Shown: one piece after another, positions 226 through 11,080 of the stretch | Numbering within the stretch: the first letter of the stretch is position 1 | Layout: the number at the start of each line of letters is the position of its first letter | Origin: a virus | Lineage: Duplodnaviria; Heunggongvirae; Uroviricota; Caudoviricetes | Reading direction: 5' to 3' (one strand) | IMG/VR virus record: IMGVR_UViG_2778261641_000016 | DNA length: 11,080 bases | Program-made: the position numbers and the translations under genes | The notes under the pieces: model-generated | Databases searched by the model: none | What the model was told of the DNA's origin: nothing | What the model saw: only the letters and a program-made list of their open reading frames with translations

Positions 226-459
226 GCCATTCAATATCTGGCACACAGGACAAAACTGAGACACACAAGGCTTTGCACTGTATTGCAAGGCTTTGTTCTC
301 TCCTGTGGATGTGTGTCTACATATTTGAAGATTGTTGTGCCGTATTTGTGACATACGCATGACAACATCATGCATCAACTTTCTGTTTGTGCCATCAACT
401 ATAGCTTAGTGAATGCGGTTAATGCTTGCTAAAACAGATAGTTATGATTGGTGCTACAG

Positions 460-505
460 ATTCGTAATGCGAAGGTCGTAGGTTCGACTCCTATTATCGG
501 CACCA
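460..505 (+). pseudogene. 3' half of a tRNA-Thr gene (thrW-type, anticodon loop through CCA); attachment-site remnant
   Basis: ATTCGTAATGCGAAGGTCGTAGGTTCGACTCCTATTATCGGCACCA contains an anticodon loop TTCGTAA (CGT), T-arm GTAGG-TTCGACT-CCTAT, acceptor 3' strand TATCGGC, discriminator A and CCA. The matching 5' acceptor strand GCCGATA is absent upstream, so this is a fragment and not a functional tRNA. Identity to E. coli thrW is from memory. Confidence 0.65.
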
Positions 506-1085
506 TCAACAGAAAATCCCGTAAAAACAGCATTCTTTAGCATGTTTATCTAACGGTTTGTAACTTCTGTTCTAACGTCTGTTAGCACTGGTAAACGCCT
601 TTGCGTTGTATCGGCTCAAGTATTGTACAACGTACTGGCGGGTAGTTACCAGGCTCAAGCCCGAACAGCATTAGAAATTATGCCATCCCTTGAAGCTAAA
701 AGAGTTGCCGGACTCTCTAAACACATCACTTGAACCCTTAGCGATACGTTCCGCGCTTCGTGCGGCGCTCAATGATGCTACACGTCGAGATGACGTTGCA
801 GAAAATAAACAGGCGTAATGTTGGGAAGACTAACCGGATCGGGAAAGAATCCGGCTCTGCCACGGTTTCGATCACCGGAGTATAACGATCACCTGATAAG
901 AGAACGTGCTAAGGCTTTATCCTCCCTGCGAAGGGATTACACCCTGCGGAAGCGCTACGCGCCGCCTTTTCTTATGTGCCCAACACGGCACGTAATGGTC
1001 ATCCATTATCTGCACCATTGTAACTTTCGTTGTACTGCCTCTCTGATGTACGTTGAGCGCTGGCAGATTCAGCGGAGGGGATATC

Positions 1086-1244
1086 ATGTCAAAAGCTAAC
1101 CAAAAAGCAGCCACGAAGCGCAACAACCGTAAGATTCACGCCCGTAAATTCCTGGCAACACCAGAGGGGAAAGCCTGGCTTGCTAAGAAGCAGGAAGAGC
1201 GAGAGGAAATCAAGTTGGCGCGAGCTGCAAACTTGATGTTTTGA
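1086..1244 (+). CDS. small, strongly basic hypothetical protein (52 aa)
   Basis: ATG at 1086 lies 6 nt after SD GGAGGG (1074-1079), in frame with track ORF 1053..1244. Product MSKANQKAATKRNNRKIHARKF... is Lys/Arg-rich. Stop TGA 1242-1244. Confidence 0.45.
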   Translation: MSKANQKAATKRNNRKIHARKFLATPEGKAWLAKKQEEREEIKLARAANLMF

Positions 1245-1247
1245 GAT

Positions 1248-1263
1248 GGGGCTAATCAGCCCC
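1248..1263. terminator. GC hairpin between convergent genes (possible terminator)
   Basis: GGGGCT-AATC-AGCCCC perfect 6-bp stem immediately after the stop of the 1086..1244 gene. It overlaps the stop codon of the convergent minus-strand gene and has no adjacent U-tract, so function is uncertain. Confidence 0.3.
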
Positions 1264-2029
1264 TATTGCCCCTATGCTTTTTTTCGAATCTTGTCACAAC
1301 TCTATCCAACCATTTGGGTTCTTCTCTAAGATCTGAGTAGTAACAATTTTCTGGAACCGCGTTCCAGAAAGCAGTTATTGCGTTAGCAAAATCTACAAAT
1401 TGATCTTCTGAGACATGTAAATCGTCATGGTTAGGGACAATCTGCGTGCCTCTAACATCGGTGGGGTTTGGGTAATACTCAGGATGATCAACTGATAGTG
1501 TTTGATGTGCAGGGCCGTCTCCATGCTTGTATACGTTTACCACCAAGTTACAGGCTTTTATCCTTTCTCCGTATTCGGTTCCATTGATTGTGAGGCCAAT
1601 CCATTCGAGCAAATCAATTAGCTGATGGAAAGTTAAATTCCAGATCATGGGGGTAATCAATTCTCTTTCACACCAATTACTTAGCTCTTTGATAGTATGT
1701 TCTCTTAGTTTTTTATCAAACTGATGATACATACCTGCTGTCAACGCCAACAATACGGTATTTTGCATCTCCAGAAGCGACCGTACATAATAAATTCCCT
1801 CATGATAGGCTTGCTCGTAGGCCGCCATTGGGTCATCGTTATCTTGATCAAAATACTCAGCAGTAGTCTCCAAAAACTGTTGTTCTCTCTTCTCTGCTTC
1901 TTGTTCTAAATCACCAAACTGAGAGAGAAGCCGCCGCCTTGCCTCAGAAACGTAAAATTCATGGGGTTCAAGAAAGTATGGAAGATCGGCTCTGGCTAAC
2001 CAGAAGGTGACAAAATTTTCAGTAGACAT
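1256..2029 (-). CDS. hypothetical protein (257 aa), function unknown
   Basis: Long minus-strand ORF. Preferred start is the ATG at 2029 (MSTENFVTFW...), preceded by SD GAGGAA with 4-6 nt spacing; the track start at 2056 has no SD. No motif I can assign. Confidence 0.6.
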   Translation of the reverse strand: MSTENFVTFWLARADLPYFLEPHEFYVSEARRRLLSQFGDLEQEAEKREQQFLETTAEYFDQDNDDPMAAYEQAYHEGIYYVRSLLEMQNTVLLALTAGMYHQFDKKLREHTIKELSNWCERELITPMIWNLTFHQLIDLLEWIGLTINGTEYGERIKACNLVVNVYKHGDGPAHQTLSVDHPEYYPNPTDVRGTQIVPNHDDLHVSEDQFVDFANAITAFWNAVPENCYYSDLREEPKWLDRVVTRFEKKHRGNRG

Positions 2030-2192
2030 ACATTTCCTCAATGAAGCGATAGACATTTTGAGGTTATGTTATCTTCGGTGAGGGTTAAAATCCTCAACTG
2101 ATTCAATGGAATTGTCATTTGGTTTGAAATGCGGTAAAAGAATAAAATTCGTAATGTACGCTTTGCAGAAACAATCTGAAAATGAGGTGGTT

Positions 2193-2420
2193 ATGAGTGA
2201 ACGTTACGAATTTTTACCCAATTGCTTCCTGAAAGTCTCTATCTCATCGGGTTACTTTACTGCCATCCTTGATGGTTCGCTTCCTCCTGATACCCCTGGT
2301 TCTGTTCATGCTGATAATGCCACGCAAGTCATAATCGTACTCGATTCCTACTTCCAATTGACTGACTTACAGCATCAAGGAATTGCTAATTATCTTTGCT
2401 CTCAAGGGATGGAACTTTGA
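2193..2420 (+). CDS. hypothetical protein (75 aa)
   Basis: ATG at 2193 preceded by SD GAGGTGG (2184-2190), in frame with track ORF 2106..2420. Divergent from the 257-aa gene. Confidence 0.4.
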   Translation: MSERYEFLPNCFLKVSISSGYFTAILDGSLPPDTPGSVHADNATQVIIVLDSYFQLTDLQHQGIANYLCSQGMEL

Positions 2421-2875
2421 TAGATTGGTTGCTTAATGTTGATAATCTGACCATGCTTGCCGCATGGGCTGGGTTTGCACTATCCATTTTCCAGCTATTA
2501 AAATCCAGAACAGATCTACGCCTTTTCTTAGGTTGCGATCAGTATGAAGACAGAATTTATGTTTCCAACAAAAGCGCCCATGATGTGACGATAAGTTCGG
2601 CGGGCATAGTAACCGCCAGCGGACGCCTTAGCGATTGTTCTAACGAACATTGTGATGAATACATGATCAGCCCCATGTTGCCACGCCGATTAAAAGCCCG
2701 TGATGAAATGATCTTAGAAGTACCATTCATCAATAAGGCTCACCATAATAAGGTGCATCATCGCGGAGGGGTGTATGTTACTACATCTGATGGGAAGCTG
2801 TTCAGTGATGTTAGTTGGCTGCGTCGTCGCTGGTGGTGGATATTGTCTCTGATCCTACGTGATTCCAAGCAGTGA
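2417..2875 (+). CDS. hypothetical protein with N-terminal hydrophobic (probable transmembrane) segment
   Basis: ORF in track (2396..2875) overlaps the stop of the upstream gene. Possible starts are TTG 2417 (after AGGGA at 2405-2409) or ATG 2453; the start is uncertain. Segment LAAWAGFALSIFQLL is hydrophobic. Confidence 0.4.
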   Translation: MIDWLLNVDNLTMLAAWAGFALSIFQLLKSRTDLRLFLGCDQYEDRIYVSNKSAHDVTISSAGIVTASGRLSDCSNEHCDEYMISPMLPRRLKARDEMILEVPFINKAHHNKVHHRGGVYVTTSDGKLFSDVSWLRRRWWWILSLILRDSKQ

Positions 2876-2933
2876 TTACTTATACACCGCACCAGACCAC
2901 GCTGGTTATCTGCTTGTCTTCCTTCTTCAATTG

Positions 2934-3131
2934 TTACTCCTCTTCAAAGGTCATTGTGTAGCGGCATTGCTGCGACGGCCTGAGCGTCACTGTCTCCGTA
3001 AAGTTGGCGTTGGAATAAACGCAAATCTTCGCGTTGTCTGTCTCCTGTTCGTCACTGAGAATCAGGGTTATCTGTCCGGCATTCGCCAGGACTGGCATTA
3101 CTGTCAGCGTCAGCACAAGCAAGCGTTTCAT
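2934..3131 (-). CDS. small secreted protein with Sec-type signal peptide (65 aa)
   Basis: ATG at 3131 preceded by perfect SD AAGGAG with 6-nt spacing. N-terminus MKRLLVLTLTVMPVLANA has an n-h-c signal-peptide layout. The SD overlaps the stop of the upstream recombinase gene, suggesting co-transcription. Confidence 0.55.
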   Translation of the reverse strand: MKRLLVLTLTVMPVLANAGQITLILSDEQETDNAKICVYSNANFTETVTLRPSQQCRYTMTFEEE

Positions 3132-3141
3132 GCGTATCTCC

Positions 3142-3702
3142 TTATAAGTCCATCTCATTGATCACACGGCTAACGGCTTGCTTGTCTAAATCCAGATAGC
3201 GCCTGGTGTCAGTGATGTTGCTGTGATTAAGCACGGTCATAGCTAAAGCGATGTTGTTTGCTGAACGCTTGTAGATGGCATTCCCGCCAGCTTTGCGGAA
3301 GCTGTGAGCTGATACAGTGCCATGAATACCGATAGCTTTAGCGGCCTCTGCGATCTGCTTGCTCACTTCTTCGCGTCGTACAGGCGCTTGCTTGTTCATT
3401 GATCGGTTACGCTGGCTTCTGAACACATGCACATCATGCGGATACTCAGCACGGCGACGAGCAATCATCTGCACCACTGGAGCAGGGAGAGTGAGGGCTT
3501 TACGCTTCCCTGTCTTCTGTTCTTCTATGTCAATCTCACCGTTGATCACTTCGTCGAAGCGTAACGCTACGGCATCCCCCACACGCAGTACAGCGGCTTG
3601 CATCATTAACGTAACGTCAGCTATCAGGCTCTTGTTATGAGCGTTTAGCCACTCCCTGATCGCTTTGGCTTGCTGTTCGTCTAACACTACTGCTCTGTTC
3701 AA
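3142..3702 (-). CDS. small tyrosine recombinase (catalytic domain only; FimB/FimE-size integrase/invertase, or truncated integrase)
   Basis: Product carries the catalytic signature in order: Arg in VLRVGDAVALRFDEV, HxxR in HSFRK, and HSNITDTRRY near the C-terminus. Probable start TTG at 3702 after SD GGGAGGG; the track start at 3774 is also TTG but has no SD. There is no N-terminal arm/core-binding domain. Confidence 0.65.
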   Translation of the reverse strand: MNRAVVLDEQQAKAIREWLNAHNKSLIADVTLMMQAAVLRVGDAVALRFDEVINGEIDIEEQKTGKRKALTLPAPVVQMIARRRAEYPHDVHVFRSQRNRSMNKQAPVRREEVSKQIAEAAKAIGIHGTVSAHSFRKAGGNAIYKRSANNIALAMTVLNHSNITDTRRYLDLDKQAVSRVINEMDL

Positions 3703-3799
3703 TTTACCCTCCCATAAAGACACACATCTAAACTCAACGAAACAAACAATATGATCAATTTCAGTAAGTTGCAATATAAATGATCAAAAATCGAACTGT

Positions 3800-4009
3800 C
3801 TTGTGTGTGGTAAATGGCGCGATTGCGTCCAGTGCTTAACGACCTCCAGGGCCGCCTCCAGATCGAAAATTTCTTCTCCTCTAAATATCTTGAACAAAAT
3901 CATGATGTTGGCATTTATAAACATGTGTTTGAACATTGCCAAATCCTCAACTCTGCACGAAGAACAGCGGCAACAGCGGAACATCACACTACCAATGCTT
4001 GTGTGTGGT
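3800..4009. repeat. pair of 12-bp direct repeats CTTGTGTGTGGT (3800-3811 and 3998-4009)
   Basis: Exact 12-mer present twice, 198 bp apart, directly upstream of the recombinase gene. Confidence 0.4.
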
Positions 4010-4080
4010 TATTGTCTATCTCATTGATTTAAATCTGATAAATGTAAGGTTGTTAGGCGAGGGCGGGGCTAACCTGCCTG

Positions 4081-4109
4081 TATGCACAAATTATGCGGAG
4101 TTTATGCAC
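4081..4109 (+). repeat. three TATGC(A/G) direct repeats phased at 11 bp (iteron-like)
   Basis: TATGCAC at 4081, TATGCGG at 4092, TATGCAC at 4103, with exact helical-turn spacing, directly after a GC box GGCGAGGGCGGGG (4056-4068). Confidence 0.4.
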
Positions 4110-4460
4110 TTGAAACTGAGTGTGTAATGAAATGATTAGAATGCTAATCAATTGGTGGATTTTGGCATGAAAAAGAAACATCGTTTCATTTTAGAAAACT
4201 CGTTCAGCACATTGCACCTGTCATGAAACTCCTCATTGTGGACAATGATCGCTGTGAGCCGCATGGCGCAAGGCTTTACGCAAAGTGAGTGATGGTTACT
4301 ATCTTGCTGACTATGGCAACTTTACCCATGTAACAACGGCAATCTTTACCTGTCATTTAAGATAGGCTTAGCTATGATTATCGTGTTGTTTTGATAGGAA
4401 TAACCTCTCGTTACTCTTAGTGTTGTTGCATGGATGAATCAGAGTTAGTTGGGGGCGTTA

Positions 4461-4541
4461 TACATCAAAATGATGTATAGATGCATGGGATACGCATCAA
4501 ATTGATGTATGGATCGGCAAACTACACATCAAATTGATGTT
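4461..4541. promoter_or_regulatory. array of three inverted-repeat sites CATCA-N3-TGATG phased at 32 bp (operator-like)
   Basis: tACATCAAAATGATGTa (centre 4469), cGCATCAAATTGATGTa (centre 4501), cACATCAAATTGATGTt (centre 4533). Half-site copies recur at the downstream promoters. Confidence 0.5.
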
Positions 4542-5091
4542 CTATACAAAGAGATTCTAAAAGCGATCTCTAAAAGAGAGCTTTTAGAAGATCTTGTTAA
4601 AGATTCGCTTTGCTGGCGCGTATCGCCTGGCAAGTGACCTGATTCGCCTTTGGGGGCTACTCGGTCAGCCGCTCACGACGCAGCGTAGCGCATCTGTCTG
4701 TGATTGTGCCAGGGCTTCGCCCTCGTGAAACGAGGCACAGAAGCTATGCGCCGTGTGCGCAATGTCTTTCAGCATAACTTCTGCCTGTCTTCCATGCTCC
4801 GCATTCATCCATGCAAAGTTAGCCCACGGCTAAGGATTCACTGGTCGCTGATGGCTCCAGTTCATCCAGCCTCAATCCAATACCATCACCTACTATCCTG
4901 ATAACTAACGTTATCCCTCAGTAGTTGTGCTATTGGTTTCGGGAGTAAGTGCCAGAGGGCGGCGGTAACGCAAACGGAACGCCCCAGACGCGCTGAGAGC
5001 GAATTTGAGAGGATAGGGAGGGGATTGCAACTCTCAGGCTTTCAAACCTGTTAGAAAGCGATAGACCGCGTTTTATGATGACATGAATGAA

Positions 5092-5120
5092 TTGATCACA
5101 ACGTGGAAATGCGCTATAAT
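5092..5120 (+). promoter_or_regulatory. sigma70-like promoter (TTGATC - 17 bp - TATAAT)
   Basis: -35 TTGATC at 5092-5097, 17-nt spacer, perfect -10 TATAAT at 5115-5120; points into the downstream operon. Confidence 0.5.
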
Positions 5121-5142
5121 TTGAAAGGGATTTAAATAAGTG

Positions 5143-5171
5143 TTGACATTTAAATCATTTCATGTTAAAGT
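5143..5171 (+). promoter_or_regulatory. second tandem sigma70-like promoter (TTGACA - 17 bp - TAAAGT with TG extension)
   Basis: Perfect -35 TTGACA at 5143-5148, 17-nt spacer, -10 TAAAGT at 5166-5171 preceded by TGt. The half-site AAATGATGTA (5172-5181) sits at the predicted transcription start. Confidence 0.45.
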
Positions 5172-5266
5172 AAATGATGTAGGGTAATGAAAGCATTCAT
5201 CCCGTCCTCATCTCAGGCATCCAGCCTAACGCAAACAATCCAACTTACACCGCACTATCAGGCAAC

Positions 5267-5515
5267 GTGATTAACGTTCTCCCTGGATGGTGTTTCTGTG
5301 TTTCTAACGCAAGGAGAACCAAAATTAAGTATTTTAATCCAGAACTTGTCTTCGAGGCTTTAAAGGCCGGAAGCCAGACGCGAAATGCAATAAACAGCCA
5401 GCGAGCAGCCGCACAACGGCAAGGATATTTCGAACACGCTGAAAGATTGCGTAAAGGAATCGAACTTTACGATCAATGGAAAGCTGAACAGGCTGAAACC
5501 ACCACCAACGAATAA
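5267..5515 (+). CDS. hypothetical protein; start codon uncertain
   Basis: Open frame in track from GTG 5267 to TAA 5513-5515. A strong SD AAGGAGAA (5311-5318) lies inside it but no in-frame ATG/GTG/TTG follows within 15 nt; only ATT at 5325. Confidence 0.35.
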   Translation: MINVLPGWCFCVSNARRTKIKYFNPELVFEALKAGSQTRNAINSQRAAAQRQGYFEHAERLRKGIELYDQWKAEQAETTTNE

Positions 5516-5533
5516 ACCAGAAGGAGAAACCAA

Positions 5534-5710
5534 ATGAGCGAAATCCAGAAGAAGAAACCAGCCGGAACATTCGTAAAACTGCCGGATGAAGTGTTTAGTA
5601 CTTTGTTCAAAGAGGCGCGAGCGAGAGGCGTAACAGTGCAGGAGATGTTAATTGACGCTGCAACCACACTTTCCACATCAATTAAGAACGGAGAACGTTC
5701 TACCAAATAA
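5534..5710 (+). CDS. small DNA-binding protein, ribbon-helix-helix-like (58 aa)
   Basis: ATG 5534 is 7 nt after perfect SD AAGGAG (5521-5526). Product MSEIQKKKPAGTFVKLPDEVFSTLFKEARARGVTVQEMLIDAA... has the beta-strand/helix/helix pattern of Arc/CopG-type proteins. Not in the ORF track because it is under 60 aa. Confidence 0.55.
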   Translation: MSEIQKKKPAGTFVKLPDEVFSTLFKEARARGVTVQEMLIDAATTLSTSIKNGERSTK

Positions 5711-5724
5711 GGATACACCCTAAC

Positions 5725-6465
5725 ATGACTGACATTATAAACAGTAAGGCTTTTAGTTTCACCAACACCGAAGACGCATTTAACGAATGCACCAGGATCA
5801 CCAATCTTAAAACAGGCGTAACAGAGTCCCTGTCTCCTGCTGATAAGCAGTTTTACGTCAGAATGCGCCATCGTTATTATCGCTTTGCGATAGAGTTGGG
5901 CGGTACTTATTACGATGACATTGATCAACTTGGTGCAAGTATTGGTGTCAGCTCGGCTACGGCAACACGTATTGTTGCAAAGTTGAAGAAAATCGGACTG
6001 ATCGCCAGTAATAAGCCAAAGCGCTCTAACCAATGGACTATAACGCCACTCACGCCGCAAAACTTCACCTTTGAACGTGATCGTAATGCGATGGAACGTG
6101 ATTCCGCGCCGGAATGGGTAGATTGTCTGAAACATCCCGTGTTTGGCAAAGCTAAAGAAGACGTAGCGCCAGAGGAAGAAAAACAGCAGTCAGTGCCAGA
6201 AGAGGCCAAAGCAGATCCGAAGCCGGAGAAGCCAAAGAAAATGCCTACGAAGAAACCCGCCTCCATTCCAGCTAAAGATATTAAGATAGAGCCAGTTAAT
6301 TTAAACTTTCTTGAGGGTTATCGGGATGAATGGGAGAATCCTGAAAAGAATCTACCAGTTTCACAACATCCGAAAATCAGATGGCTACTTATTAACGGAT
6401 ACCTGGACACAGAGAAGAATCCAAAACTTAAACCAATCTACGAGGAAATAGAACATTTATGCTGA
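5725..6465 (+). CDS. winged-helix DNA-binding protein with long Pro/Lys/Glu-rich linker (possible phage O-type replication initiator or regulator)
   Basis: 246-aa ORF. The N-terminal part has an HTH-like segment (DIDQLGASIGVSSATATRIVAKLKKIGLIAS), followed by a low-complexity linker (EEEKQQSVPEEAKADPKPEKPKKMPTKKPASIP). The domain layout resembles replisome-organiser proteins; assignment is from pattern only. Confidence 0.6.
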   Translation: MTDIINSKAFSFTNTEDAFNECTRITNLKTGVTESLSPADKQFYVRMRHRYYRFAIELGGTYYDDIDQLGASIGVSSATATRIVAKLKKIGLIASNKPKRSNQWTITPLTPQNFTFERDRNAMERDSAPEWVDCLKHPVFGKAKEDVAPEEEKQQSVPEEAKADPKPEKPKKMPTKKPASIPAKDIKIEPVNLNFLEGYRDEWENPEKNLPVSQHPKIRWLLINGYLDTEKNPKLKPIYEEIEHLC

Positions 6466-6920
6466 AAACGGTTATACCCAAACAATACAACGAACGTGAT
6501 CTTAACATCATCCATCTTGCCAGTTTATTAAATCCAGAAGTTGAAAGAGGTGTTGCATTCGAACAAGCGCAAGAACTTGTAGATGTTTACGCTGAGCGAG
6601 GTGAATCAAGTTACGCTAATGCTCTTGTTACGCTATTCAATGCAGCGATGAAGCCACCGAAAGAGATAGAATGTAAAATGACATCCCCACATCTTCACGA
6701 TAAGAATCTGTCTCCTTCGGAACGTCTGGTATTAATGCACCTCGAATCACTGCCATCATTAACAAATGTGAAACAGGAGTCAATAGCGATAGTGTTGGGG
6801 ATAAGTGTGGCAACTGTATCCAGTGCGATTCGCAAGCTTCGCCGCAATGATTATCTAACTACTACGTTAATCAAACCTGGTCGCGGTAAAGGATGCGACA
6901 TTACACTTACGACTAAATAA
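6459..6920 (+). CDS. hypothetical protein with C-terminal winged-helix DNA-binding motif (153 aa)
   Basis: Start overlaps the upstream stop (ATGCTGA), implying translational coupling. C-terminal region SPSERLVLMHLESL...ESIAIVLGISVATVSSAIRKLRRNDYL is HTH-like. Confidence 0.55.
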   Translation: MLKTVIPKQYNERDLNIIHLASLLNPEVERGVAFEQAQELVDVYAERGESSYANALVTLFNAAMKPPKEIECKMTSPHLHDKNLSPSERLVLMHLESLPSLTNVKQESIAIVLGISVATVSSAIRKLRRNDYLTTTLIKPGRGKGCDITLTTK

Positions 6921-7024
6921 CAACAATCGGGAAACTTTTATGATTACTGCTTTATGGTGGTTCACCATATTCTATGGCGTTTACGTTATAACCAGACAAG
7001 GAGTTTCCCCTCTACGAGGAATGA

Positions 7025-7408
7025 ATGGGACGAAAAGAACGAAGTAACCTTGTTAGAATCGAAAAAGCCACACGCATCAGCAAACGTAAATACACCTCTT
7101 CTCTACAAGACCTCGCACGAGAGTCTATTCCTGGTGAGATGGTGACAACTATTAAAGAATATCCCGCAGTAGTACCAAATGGATTAGAGTTTGAACTATT
7201 GCAGGATGTTCTATCGTCAACGGATAACGTTTATTACAAACCACGACGCAGACGCGAATATATTATAGATAGTAGCCATCTCAAGAAATGGCAAATAGCA
7301 GGATTTGAACATTACGCCGATTATATTGGGTATTGTCAAACCTGGGGGCTATCCCAGCACACACAAGAGTTTGATATTCTCTTTGACGACAAGGAAAACA
7401 ATGAATAA
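7025..7408 (+). CDS. hypothetical protein (127 aa), basic N-terminus
   Basis: ATG 7025 is 5 nt after GAGG (7016-7019). Its stop overlaps the next start (ATGAATAA). Confidence 0.5.
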   Translation: MGRKERSNLVRIEKATRISKRKYTSSLQDLARESIPGEMVTTIKEYPAVVPNGLEFELLQDVLSSTDNVYYKPRRRREYIIDSSHLKKWQIAGFEHYADYIGYCQTWGLSQHTQEFDILFDDKENNE

Positions 7409-7739
7409 TAAAACTATGGACACAGTGAACACCCTAATTAACTCTTTCCACGACAACTGGCATTTACCAACCTTACAGCTTGTTAATGCAGCGTGGCGTG
7501 AGAGAACGCCCTCCGCGCTTCTGGAAGCGGTGCAATACACTGAACAGGCAATCACTGCCCTTGAACATCTGCAAACGTCTGTAGCTCGTTTGGTGCAGCG
7601 TGACGGCAGTTCGATCACACCAGAAGAAGCGTGGCGTGTAGCTAATGACCTTGAGGAGCTTGCTTGCTCTCTGCAATACATCACCGTTGAACTCGGAGAG
7701 CTTTCCATCCAGATCGCGGAAGAATGCGCCATAACATAA
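7401..7739 (+). CDS. hypothetical protein (112 aa)
   Basis: ATG 7401 is 5 nt after AAGGA (7391-7395), in frame with track ORF 7305..7739. The longer track start has no SD. Stop TAA 7737-7739. Confidence 0.55.
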   Translation: MNNKTMDTVNTLINSFHDNWHLPTLQLVNAAWRERTPSALLEAVQYTEQAITALEHLQTSVARLVQRDGSSITPEEAWRVANDLEELACSLQYITVELGELSIQIAEECAIT

Positions 7740-7754
7740 AAGTTACTAAATGTC

Positions 7755-7783
7755 TTGACATTATGTGCTATATGTGTCATAAT
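7755..7783 (+). promoter_or_regulatory. near-consensus sigma70 promoter (TTGACA - 17 bp - TGtCATAAT)
   Basis: Perfect -35 TTGACA at 7755-7760, 17-nt spacer, extended -10 TGtCATAAT (7775-7783). It starts 16 bp after the stop of the upstream operon. Confidence 0.6.
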
Positions 7784-7789
7784 GAGTTA

Positions 7790-8334
7790 TAGGGTAAGTA
7801 TTCGAATCACTTCACCCTCGTATGTCAATACGCACTCCTTGAGAATGCCGTTCCCATAGCGGCATTCTCTCCCTCTGAATGCTATTTCTGAAAGTGTTGG
7901 TTCTTTGTCTTGTTTGTTCCGAAGGAATGCGCGGGATGTAATATCTCGTTGTGTTGGTATTGCATCGCAATCACCGCGCATCTCCGACTTTTTCAGAAAG
8001 GGCATTCGCTCTTTGCTCATTCATTCCGTTAGGATGAATGTAGTCAGACTGAATAAACGCCGTCAGCGGTAGTTACGTTCAGGCTGGCAATCTCTTATTA
8101 CTATTCCAGTGGTGATATTGAGATTCCATTCCCACTTCTCGCCATGACAGAAGGGCTTCTGTTTTGAAGTGGGAGCAATGACGGGCGATCCTACTTCTGT
8201 TATTCGTAACAGTTGCGCCCTTCATTTTTTCAAGAAGCCATTCTTTAACATCATAATCCTCCGAAACGAAAATGATTTTAACAGAATGCTTTCTAACAAG
8301 GGCATATTCTCCAGGGGCTTAATCGCCCCTTTTT
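7790..8334 (+). ncRNA. candidate ~545-nt non-coding leader transcript (promoter to intrinsic terminator); speculative
   Basis: No plus-strand ORF of 60 aa or more between the promoter and the terminator. Contains a perfect 10-bp stem hairpin (7841-7850 / 7860-7869). Only short ORFs without credible SD. Confidence 0.3.
8313..8334 (+). terminator. rho-independent terminator
   Basis: GGGGC-TTAATC-GCCCC stem-loop (8314-8329) followed directly by TTTTT (8330-8334). Confidence 0.6.
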
Positions 8335-8405
8335 AACAATCTGCATGTAACACTTCCGTTATCAATGGAAGGATAAACGCAGTTATAACGCGAAGGAACA
8401 ACACA

Positions 8406-8621
8406 ATGTTCTTAATAAACAATCGCGACCGAATCCTAAAATACAAATCCGAAGTGATTCAAGTTAATCCTGAGTTAATAGCTAAAGTGGCTGAAATGGC
8501 AGGATGTACCGTTGAAGAAATAGAAAAAGCTGTAGACCAGTATTTCCCTTCTGAGGACACACCTCAACTTAGTATGCAGGAACGGATCGCAATCAAATCC
8601 AAGGAAATCAAACAACAATGA
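8406..8621 (+). CDS. small hypothetical protein (71 aa), first gene of the head operon
   Basis: ATG 8406 is 7 nt after SD GAAGGAA. Its stop overlaps the start of the next gene (ATGA), implying translational coupling. Confidence 0.55.
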   Translation: MFLINNRDRILKYKSEVIQVNPELIAKVAEMAGCTVEEIEKAVDQYFPSEDTPQLSMQERIAIKSKEIKQQ

Positions 8622-8977
8622 TTGTAGACCTAACCGAACTTTTCCCAATTCGTAAGAGTTTCACTGACGTATTGAGCTACGCCACTGATTCTTTTGCAGT
8701 CGTAGAAGGCCGTGTTTTCGACCTGCCAGCAGATATTGAATGCGGCGATGTTATCGGCGCTGATGGCGCTCTATACACCTCCGGCGATGATGCCTTTGTG
8801 GTGGTAAGTGATTTCGTGAGTGCTGGCGACGGTAAAACCGTGAATGTCCTACGTGCGCCTAATGTTGGTAGCTTCGTAGCACTGAAAGCCGACAACCTGC
8901 ACGCAGCTAATCACGCCGCAGCTATCACCACGCTCGAATCCAAAGGGTTCGTATGCCGTCCATTCTTCACCTCTTAA
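8618..8977 (+). CDS. probable phage head decoration protein (119 aa)
   Basis: Gly/Ala/Asp/Val-rich small protein encoded immediately upstream of the major capsid gene, the same position as gpD before gpE in lambda-like heads. Assignment rests on position and composition, not on recognised sequence identity. Confidence 0.5.
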   Translation: MIVDLTELFPIRKSFTDVLSYATDSFAVVEGRVFDLPADIECGDVIGADGALYTSGDDAFVVVSDFVSAGDGKTVNVLRAPNVGSFVALKADNLHAANHAAAITTLESKGFVCRPFFTS

Positions 8978-8993
8978 TCAAGGAAGATAAATA

Positions 8994-10025
8994 ATGAGTA
9001 AAATCGCAATTGGGCGTGAGATGGTCGATTTAGCGCCAATCTTCCAGGCTCTGCCGGAACGTAACTATCTTATGAATGCCCTCGACCTATTCGACGGGGT
9101 AGGTGTTCAGAATCCGAAAGTGGTGGTGACACAGCTTCTGGATGATAACTACAGCCTGTTTAACACCCCGCAGAGCCGTTATTCATCAAACCACGACACT
9201 ACCGCGCGTCAGAATGGCAAAGAATACCTTATCGAGATTCCTTGGTTTGCAAGGGAAGATGAGTTTAAACCTGTAGACGTACAAGGCCGCAGAGTGCAGG
9301 GAACGGACTACGAGCAAACCGTTACCGACCTGTACACCGAATACACTGGCAAACATAAGATTGCTTATCTGCGTACCCGTGAGTCTTACCTGGCCCGTGC
9401 TCTGTTCAAAGGTGAAGTTTATACGCCTGCAACTGATGACCTACTGATCTCTTATGCTGAACTGTTCGGTGTGGTGCCAATGACAGCCAGCGTGAGCACA
9501 GCGACAGCGGCACAGGATTTTGATGCGATCTTAGACAAAGTTCAGGCTGCCGCAGGTGGATTGGCTGGACAGATTGAACGAGTGATCGTATTCGCTAAAC
9601 CTGCTGCATTTAGCCAGATTCGCTTCTCTGACAGTATGTCTAAGGCGTTCCAGTATGTAGCGCCATATGACGACCGTAACCTATTCTACCAGCGTCACGA
9701 GCTTCTCCCTGGTGTTAGTACGTTTAGCCTACCTGGTGCGCCTATCGACATTGTTAAAGTGACAGATCCGCTGATCCTTGCACAGATGCCAGATGATGCT
9801 GACATGGTGGCGGTTCCGGTGTTCAGTAAAGGCACAAATGCTTATCAGAACATCTACGGCGCTGCCTCTGGTAACTTTGCGCTGATCGATGCTGCACCTG
9901 CTGAATACTACTCTTGGGGCTACCTGAGCGAGCGCGGCGATGCTTACCACGTTATGCACGAAAACAGCGCATTACCAGTGAACCATGCGTTAGGTATGCA
10001 GGTGAAGATCACCATCACTGCTTAA
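8994..10025 (+). CDS. phage major capsid protein, lambda gpE-like (343 aa)
   Basis: ATG 8994 after AAGGAAG. Length matches the 341-aa lambda E protein, and local blocks (ALFKGEVY, VIVFAKP...F) resemble E-family blocks as I recall them. It follows the decoration-like gene. Confidence 0.75.
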   Translation: MSKIAIGREMVDLAPIFQALPERNYLMNALDLFDGVGVQNPKVVVTQLLDDNYSLFNTPQSRYSSNHDTTARQNGKEYLIEIPWFAREDEFKPVDVQGRRVQGTDYEQTVTDLYTEYTGKHKIAYLRTRESYLARALFKGEVYTPATDDLLISYAELFGVVPMTASVSTATAAQDFDAILDKVQAAAGGLAGQIERVIVFAKPAAFSQIRFSDSMSKAFQYVAPYDDRNLFYQRHELLPGVSTFSLPGAPIDIVKVTDPLILAQMPDDADMVAVPVFSKGTNAYQNIYGAASGNFALIDAAPAEYYSWGYLSERGDAYHVMHENSALPVNHALGMQVKITITA

Positions 10026-10088
10026 TGAGCAAGCGGGAGCCTGACCCGCTGGAAATAATCAGGCTATTGAATAGGGCGTGTGAACGTT

Positions 10089-10121
10089 GGGAACATCTCC
10101 CCAGTGTTCCCGCCCTTTTTT
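10089..10121 (+). terminator. probable intrinsic terminator after the capsid gene
   Basis: GGGAACA-(9 nt loop)-TGTTCCC stem (10089-10111), then GCCC and TTTTTT (10116-10121). Confidence 0.45.
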
Positions 10122-10144
10122 ATTTCCAGAATGAGGAAAGATAA

Positions 10145-10342
10145 ATGCAAGTGATTGTAAAAAGCGCGGGGCTTCACCTCGCCGTAAATGCTGAAACAGC
10201 AGAAGAGTTATTAAATCTGGCGGGAGTGTGTCGTGTGCTTGAAATAGATCACGGTCATCTACGTCAGTTATTACATCGTGGGCGTAGTGTATCAGATGCA
10301 CTTAATTATCTGGTGAGTAAAAAAGGCGGTGGCGATGCTTGA
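10145..10342 (+). CDS. hypothetical protein (65 aa)
   Basis: ATG 10145 after strong SD GAGGAAAG. Its stop overlaps the start region of the next ORF. Confidence 0.5.
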   Translation: MQVIVKSAGLHLAVNAETAEELLNLAGVCRVLEIDHGHLRQLLHRGRSVSDALNYLVSKKGGGDA

Positions 10343-10799
10343 GATTAATACAAGTAAGATCGTCAACACCGTAACTTTCACCGTTGACAAAGGGAGTATT
10401 GCAGAGGCTAAGGCCGCAGCGGATAACCTTCAAAAGCACTTCCAGAAAATAGCCGATCCCAAGATTCGCTTCCAGGATCTGAAGCAGCGCAGACAGAAAG
10501 CCCGTCAACAAGCCGATGATGCACGTTTTAATGATAAGCCTCGTGATACGAAGGAAATGAAAGCCCAACGTGCGGCGGAGAAGCAGAAAGCCAGGGATGA
10601 AAAGGCCAATCTGAAAGCGAAGCAGCAGCTACAGAAGCGCCAAGAGACAGCCGAGCTTAAACTTCGCCATGCAGGGCTACAAGTGTCAGGAATTAAAGGT
10701 AAATACGGGCTTGATCCTAAATCTCAGTATGAAGCGTTACGTTATATTCATCAGCAAAGCGAAGAGTTTGCGAAAAGGGTATTAACTTTCGCAGCCTGA
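10329..10799 (+). CDS. hypothetical protein, highly charged Lys/Arg/Glu/Gln-rich central region (156 aa)
   Basis: Track ORF overlapping the upstream stop (start ATG 10329 or 10335). Its last ~8 codons are read out of frame from invertase-homologous DNA. Confidence 0.5.
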   Translation: MAMLEINTSKIVNTVTFTVDKGSIAEAKAAADNLQKHFQKIADPKIRFQDLKQRRQKARQQADDARFNDKPRDTKEMKAQRAAEKQKARDEKANLKAKQQLQKRQETAELKLRHAGLQVSGIKGKYGLDPKSQYEALRYIHQQSEEFAKRVLTFAA

Positions 10800-11080
10800 C
10801 CGACAGCATAGATACGTCTTCACCAATGGGACGCTTTTTCTTCCATGTCATGGGCGCACTTGCAGAAATGGAAAGGGAGCTGATAGTCGAACGTACCAGG
10901 GCGGGATTGGCTGCGGCTCGTGAAGAAGGGCGAATAGGTGGGCGTCGATCAAAGCTAACTGATGAACAGTGGGCGCAGGCAGGCAGGTTGATTGCAGCAG
11001 GTGAATCACGACAGCGTGTGGCATTAATTTACGATGTTGGGATATCGACGCTATATAAAAAATTTCCGGCAACCAGGTAA
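10772..11080 (+). pseudogene. serine DNA invertase (Pin/Gin/Hin family) C-terminal fragment, lacking the catalytic N-terminus; runs off the window end
   Basis: Translation EKGINFRSLTDSIDTSSPMGRFFFHVMGALAEMERELIVERTRAGLAAAREEGRIGGRRSKLTDEQWAQAGRLIAAGESRQRVALIYDVGISTLYKKFPATR closely matches the C-terminal half of e14 Pin as I remember it. The frame is closed by TGA at 10730-10732 and no serine-nucleophile N-terminal domain exists in any frame upstream. Confidence 0.65.

Follow-up and report, generated by a model that had tools for sequence, protein, structure and literature searches.

The subject of this work is a non-coding segment at positions 4590-5075 of a viral DNA stretch of 11,080 nucleotides (IMG/VR record IMGVR_UViG_2778261641_000016; the whole stretch is referred to as the window), which several E. 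coli chromosomes match at 99.9% identity. The window opens with the end of proA and carries tRNA-Thr (thrW) at 430-505, beyond which lies an integrated element of about 13.5 kb whose far end, an integrase gene, falls outside the window (the element occupies 430-11080 of the window and 4100-16851 of L001). The segment, which we conclude with high confidence to be a functional non-coding structured element, lies between an origin-like region and the promoters of an early operon, in the following arrangement:

tRNA-Thr side of the recombinase gene: variable cargo genes
3142-3774, minus strand: small tyrosine recombinase
3775-5266: gap of 1.5 kb without annotated gene, between the minus-strand recombinase gene and the plus-strand early operon
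4446-4541, no strand assigned: repeat array of three 32-bp units, each with a palindrome of 15-19 bp (ACATCAAAATGATGT), at a spacing of 32 bp; context, outside the structured element
4541-4589, no strand assigned: AT-rich imperfect palindrome of about 30% GC, with GATC at 4565 and 4590; putative DNA-unwinding element
4590-5075: the structured segment
5092-5171, plus strand: two tandem sigma-70-type promoters, promoter P1 (TTGATC-17-TATAAT) and promoter P2 (TTGACA-17-TG-TAAAGT)
5178-5323, plus strand: early-operon leader, with hairpin GGG..ATGAA/TTCAT.CCC, hairpin AGGC/GCCT, a C/A-rich linker and a long hairpin
5247-5306, plus strand: terminator-like attenuator of the leader, ACACC (5247-51)...GGTGT (5289-93), then TTTCTGTGTTTCT
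Downstream, plus strand: early operon encoding two small proteins (one ribbon-helix-helix (RHH)-like), Rep, a helix-turn-helix protein, several unknown proteins, capsid and a tape-measure-like protein

A previous sequence-only reading had described positions 4600-5050 as GC-rich, hairpin-dense and free of open reading frames (ORFs). High local GC and lack of ORFs were both confirmed: GC content was 0.58 at 4601-4800 and 0.525 at 4701-5000, compared with 0.36-0.40 in the flanks (4401-4600 and 5001-5200), and the longest ORF at 4590-5075 did not exceed 65 aa on either strand. The segment is real, but its true unit is slightly wider than proposed, from about 4590 to about 5075 (approximately 480 nt in the window and 450-600 nt in relatives), and the two hairpins named in that reading exist at positions displaced by 1-4 bases, namely 4615-4627 instead of 4616-4628, and 4721-4735 (CCTCG-TGAAA-CGAGG) instead of 4717-4733. 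The Rfam scan that it had suggested matched no family, either when the whole window was compared at gathering threshold with the 4,227 models of Rfam 15 or in a permissive search (E-value up to 10, positions 4000-5600), which returned only chance-level microRNA and snoRNA matches on the AT-rich palindrome. No tRNA or tmRNA gene was found that could account for the identity of the segment.

The structured block was present in 26 of 5,426 complete E. coli genomes. Three E. coli variants of the same kind of element were recognized, with insertions at tRNA-Thr, tRNA-Leu and tRNA-Gly, and a further E. coli carrier is a different island inside the thiM thiamine pyrophosphate (TPP) riboswitch, which the insertion duplicates. 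This thiM island (2475-11463 in L010/L011) encodes an integrase, a TIR protein of about 870 aa, a serine invertase/resolvase and a Rep-like protein, carries no capsid gene, and has only the module of recombinase, non-coding block and Rep in common with the satellite-like elements; therefore, this module also serves elements resembling defence islands. A wider search with a degenerate pattern made from two invariant motifs matched genomes of Phytobacter, Buttiauxella, Kluyvera and Serratia, as well as 5 IMG/VR contigs and 41 metagenome contigs. The relatives were grouped into 35 clusters at 96% identity, 34 of which were kept as representatives with mutual identities of 48-95%. Phage and plasmid collections contained no DNA match to the segment, near or distant, and therefore no similarity to a cos or pac site of a helper phage was demonstrable.

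At every locus the gene order was the same, with a left-pointing small recombinase gene located 1.1-1.4 kb upstream of the core of the block (see below), a non-coding stretch, and right-pointing genes, of which the small ORFs and the Rep gene begin about 0.4 kb to the right of the core. The complete layout runs from the recombinase through a conserved spacer, repeat array, AT-rich stretch, block, two promoters and terminator-bearing leader to the early operon. The block was co-linear at all of the approximately 55 loci (57 when the window and a duplicate are counted), with no inverted orientation among them. Protein modules are shuffled among the elements, with identities of 98% or 23% for the recombinase and of 54% or 20% for the capsid protein. 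At such distances (54% or 20% for the capsid protein, 23% for the recombinase), the non-coding block was 76-88% identical and is hence better conserved than the flanking proteins. Three kinds of recombinase occupy the left flank, two distant tyrosine types (23% identical) and a serine invertase/resolvase (examples are 3142-3774 in the window, 4542-5120 in L002 and 6209-6766 in L011), and the constant presence of such a gene beside this hub points to a conserved requirement for inversion or for the resolution of multimers.

Judging from the sequence, the architecture of the block is modular and comprises a 5' domain with a three-way junction, a core and a 3' domain, with these predicted parts:

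4590-4605, plus strand: hairpin S1, GATCTT-GTTA-AAGATT
4609-13/4630-34, plus strand: helix S3, TTTGC/GCAAG, which encloses S2
4615-4627, plus strand: hairpin S2, GGCG-CGTAT-CGCC
4635-4667, plus strand: hairpin S4/S5, with S4, TGACC (4635-39)/GGTCA (4663-67), around GCC/GGC
4668-4704, plus strand: conserved linker CCGCTCACGACGCAGCG..., near-invariant in alignments
4705-4739, plus strand: three-way junction with closing helix TGTGCC/GGCACA
4712-22, plus strand: junction hairpin a, GGG-CTTCG-CCC
4723-33, plus strand: junction hairpin b, (C)TCG-TGAAA-CGA(G)
4747-4761, plus strand: hairpin TGCGC-CGTGT-GCGCA, kept as TTGCGCTGTGCGC in relatives
4826-4945, plus strand: core, near-invariant, consisting of helix P1, a C/A-rich linker and helix P2, then TTTC
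4828-4871, plus strand: core helix P1, GGCT..GGAT..CTGG/CCAG..ATCC..AGCC
4872-4892, plus strand: core linker, C/A-rich and G-poor
4877-4936, plus strand: core helix P2, a long hairpin CCAATA..CAC.CTAC[GATAAC-TAAC-GTTATC]GTAG..GTG.TATTGG, with TTTC next to it
4946-5075, plus strand: 3' domain, with invariant AGTGCCAGAGG at 4948-58
4957-84, plus strand: variable hairpin of the 3' domain, GGGCG[GCG-GTAA-CGC]..CGCCC
Within the 3' domain, plus strand: conserved stretch of the type TAGAGCG/AGGGTAGGGA
End of the 3' domain, plus strand: GATAGAC (GATACAG in relatives), then GTTTTAT at 5070-76

Compensatory changes, for which the sequence-only reading had proposed a comparative alignment, were found in the core, in the junction and in S4. 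In the alignment of the core (MAFFT, 16 distinct sequences), which is consistent with the structure, 91% of the cells were paired vs. 21-43% when the partners were slid; seven pairs were altered on both sides, and the covariation value of 0.110, compared with 0.057 in shuffles, was reached by none of 500 shuffles. As examples, CTGG/CCAG is replaced by CCGT/ACGG, and CCAATA/TATTGG by CCAATT/AATTGG. A covariance model of the core, which is narrow (effective sequence number 1.29), detected one copy per locus with 74-166 bits.

The three-way junction occurs in at least 13 sequence versions. Minimum free energy (MFE) folding reproduced the closing helix in every one of these 13, and in 8 of them both hairpins as well; for the remaining 5 (L003, L015, L007, L010 and L025) the MFE structure is a single alternative hairpin inside the closing helix, and the two-hairpin version was read by eye. 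Hairpin a was found as GGG-CTTCG-CCC, AAA-CTTCG-TTT, TGGC-TTT-GCCA, AGGC-TTTG-GCCT and AGC-TTT-GCT, and hairpin b as CTCG-TGAAA-CGAG, ACCG-TGAAA-CGGT, GCG-TGAAA-CGC, TTCG-TGAAA-CGAA, CTGAC-GAGA-GTCAG and TGAC-GTGA-GTCA. An extra hairpin, restricted to the long variants, also changes (TTTGCC/GGCAAA, TATGCC/GGCATA, TTCGCC/GGCGAA and TTACGCC/GGCGTAA). Depending on the variant, the outer helix of S4 reads TGACC/GGTCA, CAGCC/GGCTG or TGTCC/GGACA, the inner pair (S5) switches from G.U to A-U between L002 and L039, and the counterpart of S1 in other variants is TTGCG-CTTGT-CGCAA. With regard to the 3' domain, the apical loop of the hairpin at 4957-84 is exchanged among GTAA, GTGA and GCAA, and the helix beside the 3' T-run co-varies in relatives (AGCCTG/CAGGCT, AGCTC/GAGCT, ATCTC/GAGAT, GCTCT/AGAGC and CGCTC/GAGCG). 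Over nine helices, the arms paired to 98% with their own partner and to 57.5% with the partners of other variants, a count that is biased toward structure because the arms were chosen by hand. As read from these alignments, the persistence of pairing in the junction and in S4 through many sequence replacements implies selection on structure.

The folding energy of 4541-5000 was moderately unusual, with z-scores of -2.3 on the plus and -3.7 on the minus strand; by sub-domain, values were -3.4 for the core, -0.7 for 4605-4745 in the 5' domain and -1.0 for 4946-5076 in the 3' domain. The case above chance is made by conservation and compensatory change in relatives, and not by the density of hairpins. 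Two resemblances to known signals were also considered and rejected: the lambda cosN-like GGGCGGCG (4957-4964) lies in the variable hairpin of the 3' domain, which is absent from many relatives, and the ops/JUMPStart-like GGCGGTAACGCA belongs to the same hairpin and is not conserved.

The early operon that follows the block is preceded by promoters P1 and P2, whose hexamers are kept in relatives, and by a leader of about 145 nt up to AAGGAG. With a stable hairpin and a U-tract between promoter and first gene, positions 5247-5306 have the sequence characteristics expected of an intrinsic terminator or attenuator. Among the relatives we distinguished five leader types (our own grouping, read from the sequence), some of which are textbook terminators, such as GCCTCCACC...GGTGCGGGGGC TTTTTT. 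Because in all five types a hairpin and a T-run follow the promoters and precede the first gene, the early operon is very probably under attenuation or antitermination control. Judged in the same way, the TATTGG of core helix P2 followed by TTTC, and the GTTTTAT at the 3' end of the block, are suggestive only. The first gene of the operon probably starts at ATT 5324, 7 nt past AAGGAG, and not at the annotated GTG 5267, which is in the same frame. TTCTCC, in the 3' arm of the terminator-like leader hairpin (5247-5293), is complementary to the Shine-Dalgarno sequence (GGAGAA).

Alignment of the core with the leader on the same strand gave a score of 60, compared with 24 ± 4.7 and a maximum of 41 for shuffles, and took in a remnant of the extended -10 of promoter P2. 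Both are predicted to fold in parallel with the same order of parts, in which a 5' hairpin is followed by an unpaired, C/A-rich stretch and then by a long hairpin with T/U residues. This alignment identifies the early-operon leader as a paralogue of the core on the same strand. Thus, beyond what the sequence-only reading had described, the segment is part of a mobile element's hub for origin and early control, and the leader that follows the promoters has a duplicate in the core of the segment. Further degenerate copies of the leader/core module are found in some variants, and TAACGTT in the apical hairpin is common to all copies. A palindromic octamer, TAACGTTA, or its 7/8 version TAACGTTC, recurs at 4906-4913, at 5271-5278 and in an upstream module of the L007 type, at the hairpin apex or in the 3' arm in the core, the leader and the extra core-like modules; a protein may bind this motif on DNA or RNA. 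In L024, L028 and L054 a second hairpin like core helix P2 stands directly upstream of the core, and in L041 and L046 the AT-rich hairpin, together with the first part of the 5' domain (CTGGCG motif), occurs twice upstream of the core, at distances of about 235 and 460 nt, an arrangement that corresponds to a partial tandem duplication.

On the left of the block, all variants carry a repeat array followed by the AT-rich stretch. The arrays of relatives, at the same place, consist of other palindromes (GTGACAAAATGGCAC, TACGGGAAAAACCCGTA) or of direct repeats (TACCCCTATCA), and 54 nt of the AT-rich stretch are 98% identical in distant members of the family. Since the array sequence follows the Rep variant, and not the near-constant RHH-like protein, the repeats are putative Rep-binding iterons of an origin, by analogy with iteron replicons and the phage lambda origin. 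In sequence, the locus has the components expected of an iteron origin, with a repeat array, adjoining AT-rich DNA (4541-4600) and a downstream gene for a Rep-like winged-helix protein; neither DnaA boxes nor clustering of GATC exceeded chance. In E. coli MS6192 and MS6193 the array region is 32 bp longer, consistent with a fourth unit. The RHH-like protein (58 aa, 5534-5710, MSEIQKKKPAGTFVKLPDEVFSTLFKEARARGVTVQEML...) has by eye the look of a ribbon-helix-helix repressor, has no Pfam match, and is 87-100% identical among variants with differing repeat arrays. A perfect 14-nt inverted repeat at 4426-4439/4803-4816 (TTGCATGGATGAAT / ATTCATCCATGCAA) flanks the array, the AT-rich stretch and the 5' domain; relatives keep only an 8-mer of it, TTGCATGG/CCATGCAA, or another one, TGGGTGAA/TTCACCCA, which is near chance for 8-mers.

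In order to judge whether the block acts as RNA or as DNA, and from which strand, several indicators were considered together. GNRA loops account for 7 of the predicted tetraloops on the plus strand and for 2 on the minus strand (45 tetraloops in all, about 1.4 expected by chance). This excess, the exchange among GTAA, GTGA and GCAA, the G.U to A-U change in S5, the 3' T-run after a co-varying helix and the same-strand paralogy with a transcribed leader make the evidence lean toward the plus strand, and we slightly favor that the element acts as a plus-strand RNA. A number of observations weigh against it. The minus strand has the lower MFE in 26 of the 34 relatives, folding of the three-way junction is equally good for both strands, the wobble census of the core gives 5 G.U vs. 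3 A.C, and neither the window nor two relatives showed a convincing promoter for the element. Compared with shuffled sequences, the 5' and 3' domains of the window have no excess stability. The covariation evidence comes in part from structural alignments made by hand, as the MAFFT alignment of the three-way junction was not structure-consistent and global RNAalifold gave no common structure for the whole region or for the 5' and 3' blocks, the modules differing in length. The near-invariance of the core exceeds what RNA structure alone demands, and its covariance model did not detect the paralogous leader even with the filters off. In addition, L057 and L058, two distant members from E. coli, retain the 5' and 3' domains and have the core replaced by unrelated AT-rich DNA; therefore, the core cannot be the universal functional center.

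Protein-based explanations deserve the least credit. That the segment is a decayed protein gene, encodes unannotated small proteins or is a retron msr-msd RNA can hardly be believed: short ORFs of 44-65 aa do exist, but none of the ORFs local to the segment matched Pfam (no complete translated comparison with all proteins was made), the longest open frame differs in strand and phase among the 34 relatives, and the indels between variants (1, 2, 4, 7, 8, 9 and 14 bases) do not keep to multiples of three. Hence the decayed gene that the sequence-only reading had considered found no support, and its structured-RNA alternative gained from the conservation across diverged elements, the co-varying helices, the lengths of the indels and the lack of a conserved frame. 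Its decision to set the retron aside was upheld by the absence of a reverse transcriptase in Pfam scans of 18 ORFs of the window and element (other called ORFs were not scanned) and of any retron match in Rfam. It is also very unlikely that the block is a recombinase substrate, either a site for the resolution of multimers, accessory sequences included, or a switch that inverts between the two arms of the 14-nt inverted repeat. This would give a meaning to that perfect repeat and to the tyrosine or serine recombinase gene always found upstream, but all loci are co-linear, other variants retain only the 8-mer TTGCATGG, and, as two unrelated recombinase families flank the same block, this is unlikely to be their specific site. 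We give little credence as well to a minus-strand pre-primer which would run leftward from near 5075 and prime DNA synthesis with its 3' end at the AT-rich origin, in the manner of RNA II of ColE1, a densely structured RNA of about 0.5 kb. Size, dense structure, the vicinity of a replication origin and the more stable folding of the minus strand recall RNA II, and a 3' end abutting the AT-rich stretch would fit a minus-strand transcript only, the strand indicators being mixed. On the favored plus strand, however, it is the 5' end that lies against the origin; the replicon is equipped with Rep-type proteins and repeat arrays, the GNRA loops and the T-run are on the plus strand, neither RNAI nor any other Rfam family matched, and no conserved minus-strand promoter was seen on reading the sequences of relatives.

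Two further explanations, both improbable in our judgment, account for more of the data. The block could be a single-stranded DNA origin signal, in which Rep would open the AT-rich stretch and hairpins of the exposed plus strand, as lagging-strand template, would recruit host priming proteins, as in single-strand initiation (ssi) signals (G4 ori-c type, PriA sites, RSF1010 ssiA/ssiB, Frpo of F). Like these strand-specific, conserved hairpin clusters beside iterons and AT-rich DNA, the block stands directly beside the repeat array and the AT-rich stretch; its structure is ambiguous as to strand, with folding on both, hairpin a reads on the minus strand GCGAAGC, which is a very stable DNA mini-hairpin, and the near-invariance of the core in spite of diverged element proteins fits recognition by conserved host proteins. 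Known ssi signals measure 60-140 nt, so that a block of 450-600 nt is three to eight times longer, and the enrichment of GNRA loops on one strand, the terminal T-run after a co-varying helix, the homology of the core with a transcribed leader and the chance-level DnaA boxes argue against such a signal. Alternatively, the block could be evolutionary debris with an insulating role, a stack of decayed promoter-leader-terminator duplicates that would block transcription entering the early operon from the left. The core as a diverged copy of the leader and of the -10 region of promoter P2, the extra core-like modules or duplicated 5' parts of some variants, the recurrence of the C/A-rich stretch with hairpin modules that share TAACGTT, and the TTTC after core helix P2 are all consistent with this history. 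Decaying duplicates ought to diverge, but DNA conservation within the family is highest in the core, and the junction and S4 retain their pairing across many sequence replacements.

The explanation that we prefer overall, and hold tentatively, is a structured plus-strand RNA of about 480 nt in the hub that controls replication and the early operon of a satellite-like element. Structured RNAs in the control regions of satellites and plasmids are a known kind, and the present block lies outside every known Rfam family. It resembles the P4 immunity region (CI RNA, seqA/seqC) and the c4 antisense RNA of P1/P7 (RF01695) as an ORF-free, hairpin-dense stretch of a control region, in a system where expression of the downstream operon is decided at a terminator in an untranslated leader. 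It differs from both in that it does not match RF01695, is about six times larger, and is located upstream of the promoters instead of in the leader. Complementarity between the element and the leader did not exceed chance, the longest runs being 7-9 nt in nine variants vs. a mean of 8 and a maximum of 10-12 for shuffled leaders; therefore, a mechanism of the P4 CI/P1 c4 type is not supported. Sequences complementary to the C/A-rich stretch were likewise looked for, and only the stretch itself was found within the window. With the attenuated or terminated leaders of phages, such as the 6S RNA of lambda PR'-tR', the leader at 5178-5323 and the core have in common the layout of hairpin, C/A-rich stretch and long hairpin with U residues; in contrast to lambda, the core has a short U-tract and no recognizable -35, and TGcAAAGTT is the only remnant of the extended -10 of promoter P2. 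To our knowledge, there is no known antiterminator for the present element. GOLLD, ROOL, HEARO/omega RNA and OLE are comparable as multi-domain RNAs of several hundred nt from phage-like carriers whose function was initially unknown; the present block differs in having no match to an Rfam model, in its Enterobacterales hosts and in its fixed place beside an origin-like region.

If the block is a plus-strand RNA, its transcript would start at the origin-proximal end, run rightward and end at the T-run before promoter P1, and it would act on the decision that governs replication of the element or expression of the early operon. The core would mimic the leader, with its hairpin, C/A-rich single strand and terminator-like hairpin, and would compete for, or share, a host or helper factor that sets termination vs. 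read-through at the leader terminator; such a decoy or attenuation mechanism we regard as doubtful. It is conceivable, and a little easier to entertain, that the block represents an undescribed class of large (0.45-0.6 kb) multi-domain RNAs in satellites and related defence islands of Enterobacterales, serving as a switch by which signals from helper or host are linked to replication of the satellite and to read-through into the early genes. As an RNA, it would constitute a new large structured family from enterobacterial mobile elements that are easily manipulated, and its fixed position, with an origin-like region on one side and an early operon under attenuator control on the other, makes the replication decision of these elements testable; as an origin structure at the DNA level, it would still be unusually long and conserved. 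In either case, the conserved DNA marker GGCTAAGG...AGTGCCAGAGG finds elements whose proteins are too mosaic to be traced.

The element of about 13.5 kb probably represents an uncharacterized family of phage satellites in E. coli and relatives, because its set of genes (capsid, tape-measure-like protein, Rep and recombinase) is that expected of satellites. By similarity, its major capsid protein is lambda gpE-like, a 614-aa protein matches tape-measure families, and the Rep-like protein of the early operon is a winged-helix protein (DUF6945, phage O-like). Terminase or portal families had no match among the element ORFs scanned with Pfam and PHROGs, and nothing relevant was found in the literature on the element family, on DUF6945 or on structured RNAs borne by satellites.

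The left half of the 1.5-kb gap (3775-4440) has no conserved ORF and, like the block, is conserved among variants, for example as GAGCCGCATGGCGCAAGGCTTTACGCAAAGTGA at 4256-4288 and as TGGCAACTTTACCC..TGTAACAACGGCAATCTTTA; another regulatory or structured element, or a target site of the recombinase, may lie there. In L058 a gene for a DNA adenine methyltransferase (4001-4687) is inserted in the spacer that separates the recombinase gene from the origin-like region.

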